This document shows, piece after piece, positions 2,894 to 3,203 of a stretch of DNA of 4,336 nucleotides (position 1 is its first letter; each line of letters opens with the position of its first letter). Origin of the DNA: a virus (Duplodnaviria; Heunggongvirae; Uroviricota; Caudoviricetes); the IMG/VR virus record IMGVR_UViG_3300029043_000145; one strand, given 5' to 3'. Below the pieces are notes generated by a model. The model was not told where the DNA came from. It did not search any database and saw nothing but the letters and a program-made list of their open reading frames with translations. Position numbers and translations under genes: made by a program.

Positions 2894-3067
2894 TCAGCCT
2901 TTGGGCTCGATACCGCGCTGTTGTAATTCTTTGCGGAGTATTCGTTTAATCCAAGTAGCTAATGAGGTGTCGCCGTCTGCCTTGGCTGCCTCCTCAAGTT
3001 GCGCTCTAAATTCTTCTGGTAGTCGCATTTGGTATGGTGGCGATCGTTTCTCTAATGGTGTTGACAT
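2894..3067 (-). CDS. Arc/MetJ-type ribbon-helix-helix DNA-binding protein (57 aa), putative repressor. Absent from the supplied ORF track.
   Basis: Codon-by-codon reverse translation from the ATG at 3067-3065 to the TGA at 2896-2894 gives MSTPLEKRSPPYQMRLPEEFRAQLEEAAKADGDTSLATWIKRILRKELQQRGIEPKG. The pattern PxYQxRLPxE...L...A...G.S....I..RL matches the Arc-like strand-helix-helix fold. An AAGGG Shine-Dalgarno sits 8 nt upstream of the ATG. Confidence 0.7.
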   Translation of the reverse strand: MSTPLEKRSPPYQMRLPEEFRAQLEEAAKADGDTSLATWIKRILRKELQQRGIEPKG

Positions 3068-3113
3068 GGTAATTACCCTTAATTACTATAGTTACATGGT
3101 AATTACCATTGTA
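3061..3113. promoter_or_regulatory. Operator/promoter region: two copies of the palindrome GGTAATTACC plus candidate sigma-70 hexamers
   Basis: ACATGGTAATTACC occurs at 3064-3077 and 3094-3107 (30 bp apart). The second copy lies within a perfect 14-bp palindrome ATGGTAATTACCAT (3096-3109). A perfect -35 TTGACA (3061-3066) is followed 17 bp later by TACTAT (3084-3089) on the + strand. On the minus strand there are TACAAT (3113-3108) and TATAGT (complement of 3085-3090). The first palindrome overlaps the RHH gene start codon and RBS. Confidence 0.55.
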
Positions 3114-3134
3114 CTTACCATTACACAAAAAACA

Positions 3135-3167
3135 ACGCCCCGCACTGTAGGAGCAGTAACGGGGCGT
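3135..3167. other. Stem-loop in the leader of the rightward operon; reads as an intrinsic terminator on the minus strand
   Basis: ACGCCCCG (3135-3142) pairs with CGGGGCGT (3160-3167). An inner ACTG/CAGT stem closes a TAGGAG loop. The minus strand has TTGTTTTTTGTG immediately after the stem; the + strand has no T-run. Confidence 0.45.
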
Positions 3168-3203
3168 CTAACCACCAACGATAGCAGAAGTATCGAGGTC
3201 GCT

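Follow-up and report, generated by a model that had tools for sequence, protein, structure and literature searches.

Organisation of the regulatory region

The regulatory region considered here lies in a 4,336-nucleotide stretch of DNA (the window) from the IMG/VR virus record IMGVR_UViG_3300029043_000145, in which the 3' end of macB and a cspD-like gene are followed by an integrated island. Encoded there are a P4-type integrase (885-2123, plus strand), AlpA (2543-2752, plus strand), a divergently oriented Arc-like ribbon-helix-helix (RHH) repressor of 57 aa (2894-3067, minus strand; an open reading frame with a match to PHROG 228) and an Icd-like protein of 67 aa (3204-3407, plus strand; NCBIfam NF033153, E=1.4e-19). 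The gene for the latter (icd in what follows) is the first of an icd-orf106-DUF4222-primase operon and is followed by genes for a hypothetical protein and a DUF4222 protein and by the start of the primase gene. Stop and start codons overlap between icd and orf106 (ATGCCTGA, 3400-3407) and between the DUF4222 and primase genes (ATGA, 4023-4026), which suggests that translation may be coupled along the operon. An Escherichia coli element that is 100% identical in the regulatory region (window 2880-3420) continues with genes for a primase, a HEPN protein, a ClpP/major-capsid fusion and DUF1441 proteins, and because of this gene content the island is classed as a phage satellite of the phage-inducible chromosomal island (PICI) or capsid-forming PICI type. 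Between the RHH gene and icd there is a hairpin (3135-3167) which, in the reading that we regard as probable, is the terminator of an apparently undescribed, icd-silencing cis-antisense small RNA (sRNA) of about 80 nt that has its own promoter and terminator.

To the left of the hairpin lie the operators and two candidate promoters. The RHH protein matches PHROG 228 'Arc-like repressor' with E=3e-7; its scores against Pfam Arc (E=0.0057, 16.9 bits) and NCBIfam YlcI/YnfO (E=0.001, 19.1 bits) fall under the respective cutoffs of 20.4 and 30 bits, and AmrZ, its best match among solved structures with an RHH fold, is a weak one (E=0.49). The 14-bp palindrome ATGGTAATTACCAT, which serves as the presumed operator, occurs as O1 (3066-3079, one mismatch), O2 (3096-3109, perfect) and O3 (3108-3121, two mismatches), compared with 0.22 copies expected and none of 200 shuffles reaching three. 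The operators surmised in the original prediction are thus there, in three copies and not as a pair, and both they and the hairpin are well beyond chance. O1 and O2 are 30 bp apart; O1 overlaps the -35 element of the candidate icd promoter together with the RHH start codon, and O2 covers the predicted transcription starts of both genes.

The candidate icd promoter (3061-3089, plus strand) combines the -35 hexamer TTGACA (3061-3066), a 17-bp spacer and the -10 hexamer TACTAT (3084-3089), as first noticed, and agrees with the consensus at 10 of 12 positions, being the only site in the window to score at least 10/12. Its predicted start (~3096) would give a leader of ~108 nt. The hexamer spacing, the position upstream of a gene and the flanking operators are all those of a sigma-70 promoter, and the layout is kept in two related loci (L090 and L091). 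Three unrelated repressor/operator modules each possess one strong plus-strand promoter ~100 nt upstream of the icd ATG, and because these other modules carry equivalents, a rightward start inside the operators, as originally proposed, is a reasonable reading. Since a shuffled window is expected to contain 0.98 sites at 10/12 or better, with one seen, it is the position, the overlapping operators and the conservation among homologues that must carry the argument. On the minus strand the two -10-like hexamers noted earlier, TACAAT (3113-3108) and TATAGT (3090-3085), are both present, and the former belongs to a candidate RHH promoter (3135-3108; -35 TTGTTT at 3135-3130, 16-bp spacer), a weak prediction read from the sequence and from a relaxed scan, which has a better counterpart in L090 (TTGATT-16-TACAAT, 9/12). 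Its predicted start at ~3101, directed leftward, would stand face-to-face with the rightward icd start at ~3096, in keeping with the facing promoters that had been suggested for this region.

A hairpin maintained on the leftward strand

The hairpin has outer arms ACGCCCCG (3135-3142) and CGGGGCGT (3160-3167), an inner stem ACTG/CAGT and the loop TAGGAG, and it folds at -21.3 kcal/mol on the plus strand (z = -5.1) and at -23.4 kcal/mol on the minus strand. For which of the two strands has it been selected? The original prediction assigned it to the rightward icd leader and, read on the other strand, to a terminator. All 25 unique hairpin variants of type A, the leader subtype of the window, fold better as minus-strand RNA, by 6.0 kcal/mol on average, and contain one to four G·U pairs on the minus strand versus none or one on the plus strand. 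RNAalifold, applied to 25 diverse minus-strand sequences, recovered two stem-loops with compensatory changes at 10 of 23 pairs, and a covariance model built from this alignment was run against both strands of 90 loci (364 kb). There were 95 matches, every one of them full-length, on the strand opposite to icd and directly at an icd-like start, so that the link to such starts is exclusive; their E values range from 1e-7 to 1e-28, and leader subtypes absent from the seed alignment are among them. On the plus strand only partial matches of 12.9 bits were obtained.

The 86 distinct sequences among these matches make up alignment A4, whose paired positions, when read as minus-strand RNA, comprise 1553 Watson-Crick pairs, 276 G·U pairs and 49 mismatches, as compared with 1553, 1 and 324, respectively, when read as plus-strand RNA. 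In A4, 97.4% of the cells are paired versus 87.0% in shuffles, and 14 pairs are changed on both sides versus 7.0 (0 of 500 shuffles reached the observed value in either case), counts that lean towards structure in that the sequences are mutually related and A4 was fitted to the model; when the 3' partner is slid by 1-3 columns as a control, only 36-52% remain paired. The terminator helix shows compensatory changes at 10 of its 13 pairs, with 98.5% of the cells paired, and the stem covariation that could have been absent among homologues is therefore found, as that of a minus-strand RNA. Because the G·U and mismatch asymmetry of A4 agrees with the model-free folding of the 25 variants, we take the hairpin to be an RNA structure of a leftward transcript and neither a structure of the icd leader nor a DNA palindrome. 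The hairpin sequence varies widely among elements, with GAGGCTGAAAAGGA...TCCTTTCGCAGCCTC and ACGCCCCGCACTG...CAGTAACGGGGCGT as divergent examples, and the two-tier stem is retained throughout. The TAGGAG loop, present as described in the window, is not conserved (CGCTAA, CCGGAAA, CTCGCAA and others take its place), for which reason the idea that it acts as a Shine-Dalgarno decoy was discarded.

A predicted antisense RNA across the icd translation start

On the minus strand the hairpin is directly followed by TTGTTTTTTG, and the terminator scan reported it. With a further G·U and an A-U pair it forms a stem of 14 pairs, which runs into the U-tract UUGUUUUUUGU with six consecutive U residues in the tail; the whole element (SL2, 3125-3168, minus strand) has the features of a Rho-independent, intrinsic terminator and is among the most canonical of all homologous copies. 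Across the homologues, T accounts for a fraction of 0.52 in the 10 nt past the stem on the minus strand, as against 0.10 on the plus strand and a background of 0.28. The suspicion that the opposite strand carries a terminator has thus held up, the U-tract being confined to that strand, and the shielding of the repressor promoter that went with it is possible, given that the terminator ends exactly at the candidate -35 element of the RHH promoter, TTGTTT, which sits within the U-tract.

Upstream of SL2 on the same strand is a second stem-loop, SL1 (3169-3204), composed of an inner stem CGAUA (3195-3191)/UAUCG (3183-3179), which covaries among homologues (CGAUA/UAUCG versus CGUUA/UAACG), a 7-nt loop (3190-3184), and an outer pairing of the 5' segment AGC.ACC with GGU.GU of the conserved linker. 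The 5' arm of SL1 contains the anti-Shine-Dalgarno sequence CCUC. Its loop (3184-3190) is hypervariable, with 21 variants among 51 unique type-A RNAs and an entropy of 1.17 bits versus 0.18-0.20 bits in the flanking arms, which could reflect either neutral drift or a determinant of specificity. Together, SL1 and SL2 would make up a cis-antisense sRNA of ~80 nt extending from ~3205 to ~3125 on the minus strand (covariance-model match 3122-3205, 95.1 bits), predicted to fold at -35.7 kcal/mol (z = -4.9) as two stem-loops; the same architecture is predicted for leader subtypes B and C, with different SL1 sequences. As the geometry of a cis-antisense RNA demands, the minus-strand unit 3125-3205 is fully complementary to the icd leader, to the Shine-Dalgarno sequence GAGGT (3195-3199) and to the start codon (ATG 3204-3206, plus strand), both of which would be covered by the RNA. 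A search for trans targets within the window found no second copy of the conserved linker GUUGGUGGUUAG at up to two mismatches. A regulatory RNA role for the structure, raised in the original prediction, is strongly supported; neither the second stem-loop nor a promoter inside icd had been part of that proposal.

A candidate promoter inside icd

An antisense promoter is predicted within icd codons 3-5, where the minus strand bears the extended -10 element TGgTATGAT (TG 3219-3218, hexamer 3216-3211). Every leader subtype has a TAnnnT hexamer, 5-7 nt ahead of the A that opens the covariance match, and what surrounds the hexamer differs in an orderly way: type A has the extended -10 TGgTATGAT of the window, or TGaTATGAT in its Serratia form, without a -35 element, whereas type B (O157:H7) has TTGTGT-17-TATGAT, type C TTGTGT-17-TATGCT and type E CTGAAA-17-TAGACT. 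A -35 element thus appears where the extended -10 is absent, which reads as compensation of the kind seen in real promoters. All subtypes conserve either an extended -10 or a -35/-10 pair, with the motif count taken alone being at chance level.

The codon usage of icd points in the same direction. T(-12), A(-11) and T(-7) of the antisense -10 element are invariant. The -11 A corresponds to the third position of a His codon, for which CAT is used without exception; where codon 4 changes from H to Y, N or R, TAnnnT is kept as TATAAT, TATTAT or TACGAT. The -14 G corresponds to the third base of the Thr codon ACC and is kept in 55 of 56 sequences, and codon 2, in the promoter discriminator, varies freely. 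Synonymous entropy is ~0 across codons 2-11 and typically 0.2-1.5 across codons 12-84, and the constrained stretch is the one that spans -1 to -35 of the predicted promoter. Replacing CAT by CAC, a synonymous change, would be expected to abolish the RNA, if it is real, and to leave the protein unaltered. Codons 8-11 (CCG CAA GGG CGG, window 3225-3238) lack synonymous variation even in the Serratia and Buttiauxella homologues; they correspond to -21 to -33 of the predicted promoter, do not resemble a -35 element, and could form a small CCC(N)GGG hairpin with variable loops. A promoter further to the right (TTAGCA-16-TAAAAT, 3467-3440) is possible, but codons 12-27 vary synonymously and the covariance unit ends at 3205, and this candidate was set aside.

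Alternative explanations

Apart from the lean of the A4 counts, several observations speak against an antisense RNA that silences icd. The U-tracts of several homologues are weak and interrupted (e.g. GUCGUUUCUG). Type A has no recognisable -35 element, and its invariant GGGCGG at -28 to -33 is not accounted for by the proposal. Extended -10 motifs number 2 per window with 1.7 expected, which is not significant. The -10 element falls within conserved codons, and its conservation is partly confounded by constraint on the protein. The effect may be repression or else activation or stabilisation. Finally, the family labels of the target clash, NCBIfam calling it 'host cell division inhibitor Icd-like' and PHROG 6196 'transcriptional repressor' (E=3e-45); the role of Icd-like proteins in satellites is putative.

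Could the minus-strand RNA be, instead, the 5' leader of the repressor mRNA, transcribed from the icd-internal promoter and carrying an attenuator-like hairpin whose read-through tunes repressor supply? We hold this to be unlikely, in spite of a U-tract that abuts the upstream region of the repressor gene and of the weak U-tracts of some homologues. A strict scan of three other modules detected no promoter on the minus strand for their divergent repressor genes; a relaxed and noisy scan showed promoter-like sites between terminator and repressor start in modest excess only (33% versus 16% for scores of at least 8), and in none at 9 or above. In view of these scans, read-through into the repressor gene stays a live alternative. 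On the other hand, the window and L090 have a candidate of their own (TTGTTT/TTGATT-16-TACAAT) between the terminator and the RHH gene, and the terminator of the window, with its stem, U-rich tail and run of U residues, is canonical. Moreover, icd and the RNA cassette are inherited as one, whereas the repressor modules on the left are swapped, with the junction at the U-tract, and the anti-Shine-Dalgarno sequence in SL1 would have no obvious use in a repressor leader.

The hairpin might also be nothing but an insulating terminator that stops spurious leftward transcription of the operon before it reaches the repressor and icd promoters, with no antisense RNA gene involved. The terminator features and G·U pairs of the minus strand fit such a function, as do the end of the terminator at the -35 element of the repressor promoter candidate and the non-significant count of the promoter motif; yet we consider it very unlikely. 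It leaves unexplained SL1, the conserved linker, a near-invariant unit of 84 nt that reaches up to a TAnnnT at fixed distance in five subtypes, and the loss of synonymous variation confined to codons 2-11, and for more than 3 kb to the right there is no minus-strand gene.

Still less credible is a functional structure of the rightward icd leader, be it an mRNA stabiliser, a processing site, an attenuator or a CI/C4-like RNA, the last of which the original prediction had in mind when it pointed to the small processed CI RNA of P4. The leader necessarily holds the complementary hairpins and folds at -34.9 kcal/mol (z = -3.9), and C4/CI RNAs do control icd-like genes in related elements. The strand comparison contradicts it, as plus-strand pairing would have to tolerate 324 mismatches with a single G·U pair (minus strand: 49 and 276) and none of the 25 variants is as stable on the plus strand as on the minus strand; in addition, that strand has no U-tract (T fraction 0.10), the loop sequence varies, and no match to C4, isrK or any other Rfam family was found even at E up to 10. 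A DNA-level element (a protein-binding palindrome, an origin or a recombination site) would suit an inverted repeat at the recombination boundary of exchangeable modules, but it is hardly credible, for strand symmetry would then be expected whereas the 276:1 ratio of G·U pairs shows selection on one RNA strand, and the stem sequences change freely as long as pairing is kept.

A proposed three-promoter switch

Under the preferred reading, that of an icd-silencing cis-antisense sRNA, the intergenic region would constitute a three-promoter switch. A repressor-controlled sigma-70 promoter (start ~3096) would drive the icd-like/primase operon rightward, a weak leftward promoter facing it would serve the Arc-like RHH repressor gene, and a third, also leftward, promoter in icd codons 3-5 would produce the ~80-nt antisense RNA, whose 5' stem-loop bears the anti-Shine-Dalgarno sequence and whose 3' end would be set by the hairpin acting as a Rho-independent terminator. 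Transcription of this RNA, its ends and its repressive effect are what we infer from the conserved features described above. Most likely, the RNA would block icd translation, trigger cleavage of the duplex, or do both, and because the overlapping genes suggest translational coupling, the effect might extend to the downstream replication genes. In the repressed island, leaky transcripts would be silenced in this way; once the icd promoter is derepressed, the antisense RNA would be out-titrated by icd transcripts, and its promoter would be overrun by convergent transcription.

Many P4-like, PICI and capsid-forming PICI satellites have an icd-like gene at the head of their replication or early operon. 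If the RNA is real, it would add a post-transcriptional layer over island induction and replication, beside the protein repressors and AlpA, and represent a cis-antisense alternative to the classical control of icd by C4/CI. It is conceivable, albeit doubtful, that the RNA is in addition an immunity or incompatibility determinant of a large satellite family that acts in trans on the icd leaders of related islands. If so, its near-invariant arms would permit action on the icd leaders of co-resident or incoming islands, the 7-nt SL1 loop and the variable terminator loop would set specificity groups in the manner of plasmid incompatibility RNAs, and the shuffling of this RNA layer would not depend on that of the protein repressor modules.

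The antisense cassette would further explain two annotation errors: the leader is often taken for an N-terminal part of Icd-like proteins, and the frame antisense to the repressor gene for a pseudogene. The alignment of the Icd-like protein begins at ATG 3204. An N-terminally extended Icd open reading frame, starting at 3066 or 3096, was rejected on the grounds that homologues align from ATG 3204, which has a good Shine-Dalgarno sequence. The icd frame is open 214 codons upstream, across the leader and the antisense of the RHH gene (window 2763-3407, plus strand), with corresponding open frames at 2554-3147 in L090 and 2479-2994 in L091; the annotation pipeline PGAP calls the antisense frame a partial 'Icd-like' pseudogene and omits the RHH gene, and many Icd-like proteins in databases are 97-117 aa long, their start having probably been called too far upstream.

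Comparison with known systems

No Rfam match was obtained in the window at E up to 1, and only noise in the 221-nt region 3040-3260 at E up to 10. RF01695 (C4) in particular is absent from the window, where positive controls in related loci score 71-78 bits, and the repeated trans target sites of such RNAs (c4-a1b1 RF03163, IsrK-like seqA) were not found in the window either. A C4 RNA would lie on the same strand as the icd operon, as opposed to the 95 of 95 covariance matches on the other strand; the comparison with the CI RNA of P4 in the original prediction consequently does not hold in the sense of membership of that family. In the full text of the literature neither the linker sequence nor an antisense RNA of Icd-like genes was found, although supplementary transcriptome tables could list the RNA; the 'Pas' sRNAs and Esr41 were considered and belong to other elements. 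The predicted RNA is most likely an undescribed member of a conventional type of regulator, the cis-antisense sRNA.

Its closest functional analogue would be sar of phage P22, which likewise acts in an immunity region with small RHH repressors (Mnt and Arc in P22). The promoter of sar is situated where the regulated gene starts and points towards the main promoter, and the RNA covers the ribosome-binding site. It is an antisense RNA of 68/69 nt directed to the ribosome-binding site of ant, in an immunity region run by RHH repressors (PMC12197685). There is no detectable relationship between the two RNAs in sequence or in Rfam. Whereas sar targets ant, the predicted RNA targets an icd-like gene heading a satellite replication operon and, unlike sar, ends immediately upstream of the promoter candidate of the divergent repressor.

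In P1, c4 blocks the translation of icd, whereupon transcription of the downstream ant gene stops. RNA control of icd is a theme shared with the P4 CI/C4 systems (PMC3632133), and C4 (P1/P7) and CI (P4) resemble the predicted RNA in controlling an icd-like first gene of a phage or satellite early operon. However, C4 and CI are encoded on the same strand as their target, processed from the operon transcript, and act in trans on repeated target sites, whereas the predicted RNA is cis-encoded on the opposite strand with its own predicted promoter and terminator, and matches none of RF01695, RF03163 and RF01394. In related islands, isrK, c4-a1b1 and C4 RNAs are found downstream of the first icd-like gene and ahead of a second icd-like paralogue (L091 3277-3462; L132, L137, L155 and L170 at ~1729-1933), which means that cis-antisense and C4 systems occur in tandem in related loci.

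The RNA-OUT of IS10 covers the translation start region of the transposase mRNA. It belongs to the classical cis-antisense RNAs of ~70-77 nt, as does OOP of phage lambda, which is cis-encoded and 77 nt long (PMC12197685). Both share with the predicted RNA a short length, a stable fold, a promoter in or next to the target gene and an end at an intrinsic terminator; sequence and genetic context are unrelated, and the target of OOP is the 3' end of cII, in contrast to the translation start with which the predicted RNA would pair. With the P2 and 186 switches, cited in the original prediction, the region has in common the convergent, overlapping predicted starts of icd (~3096) and RHH (~3101) and an antisense promoter that converges on the icd promoter from ~110 bp, a purely geometric analogy; here, a terminator-bounded sRNA would sit between the convergent promoters. 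Type I toxin-antitoxin systems likewise join a small, potentially toxic protein to a cis-antisense RNA that overlies the start of its translation, the Icd family being named after the P1 cell-division inhibitor Icd. Type I toxins, though, are small hydrophobic membrane peptides, unlike the 67-aa Icd-like protein, which is hydrophilic by inspection and whose toxicity is putative, and the Icd-like gene, in further contrast, heads a repressor-controlled operon.

Distribution and modular inheritance

In 1587 of 5426 complete E. coli genomes (~29%), blastn finds matches to a 211-bp region that includes the hairpin, in up to six places per genome; a megablast search of these genomes gave matches in 1557. 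In most matches sampled, the similarity begins at the hairpin/terminator and runs into icd, and the repressor/operator segment on the left differs. A scan of the genome collection identified eight distant loci, with Icd-like proteins of Edwardsiella, Serratia and Buttiauxella that are 38-55% identical, and a further 171 loci came from IMG/VR scans with three Icd-like queries. These distant and IMG/VR loci all have, directly upstream of the icd ATG, the hairpin and a conserved single-stranded segment TCTAACCA(CCAACG); the subtype of the window also has the second small hairpin, CGATA-N7-TATCG, abutting the Shine-Dalgarno sequence. Among sequenced phages, DNA similarity was limited to three short matches to the hairpin itself, and in K-12 no copy was present in the CP4-57 prophage, the only P4-like region of that strain checked.

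Further signs of modular exchange were encountered along the way. In one locus (L148) a second copy of the antisense unit (678-762) lies ~740 nt upstream, and L121, L135, L144 and L156 have one as well; the extra copy adjoins a truncated icd remnant, followed by a second repressor/operator module, and looks like the scar of a module insertion or duplication. A 541-bp regulatory module is 100% identical in E. coli MS1679, where the island has a different integrase (window 600-2123 compared with L001 9392-11522) and is located between nfeF and tRNA-Ile, the island of the window adjoining cspD. Regulatory cassettes are thus exchanged between islands. As to the antisense cassette, the exact sequence of the window is present in strains MS1679 and MS20653, and O157:H7 has subtype B, equivalent to L090 3225-3312 on the minus strand.

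Two minor observations concern the flanks. Over the cspD-like gene with its leader (193-585, minus strand) there is a sub-threshold match to the cspA thermoregulator RF01766 (42 bits versus a gathering score of 78). At 2780-2799 on the minus strand, ~95 nt past the RHH stop codon, GGCGACCGCCCCCGGTCGCC forms a strong hairpin that resembles a terminator, with TTTGTTTTAT behind it, and probably marks the end of the repressor transcript.

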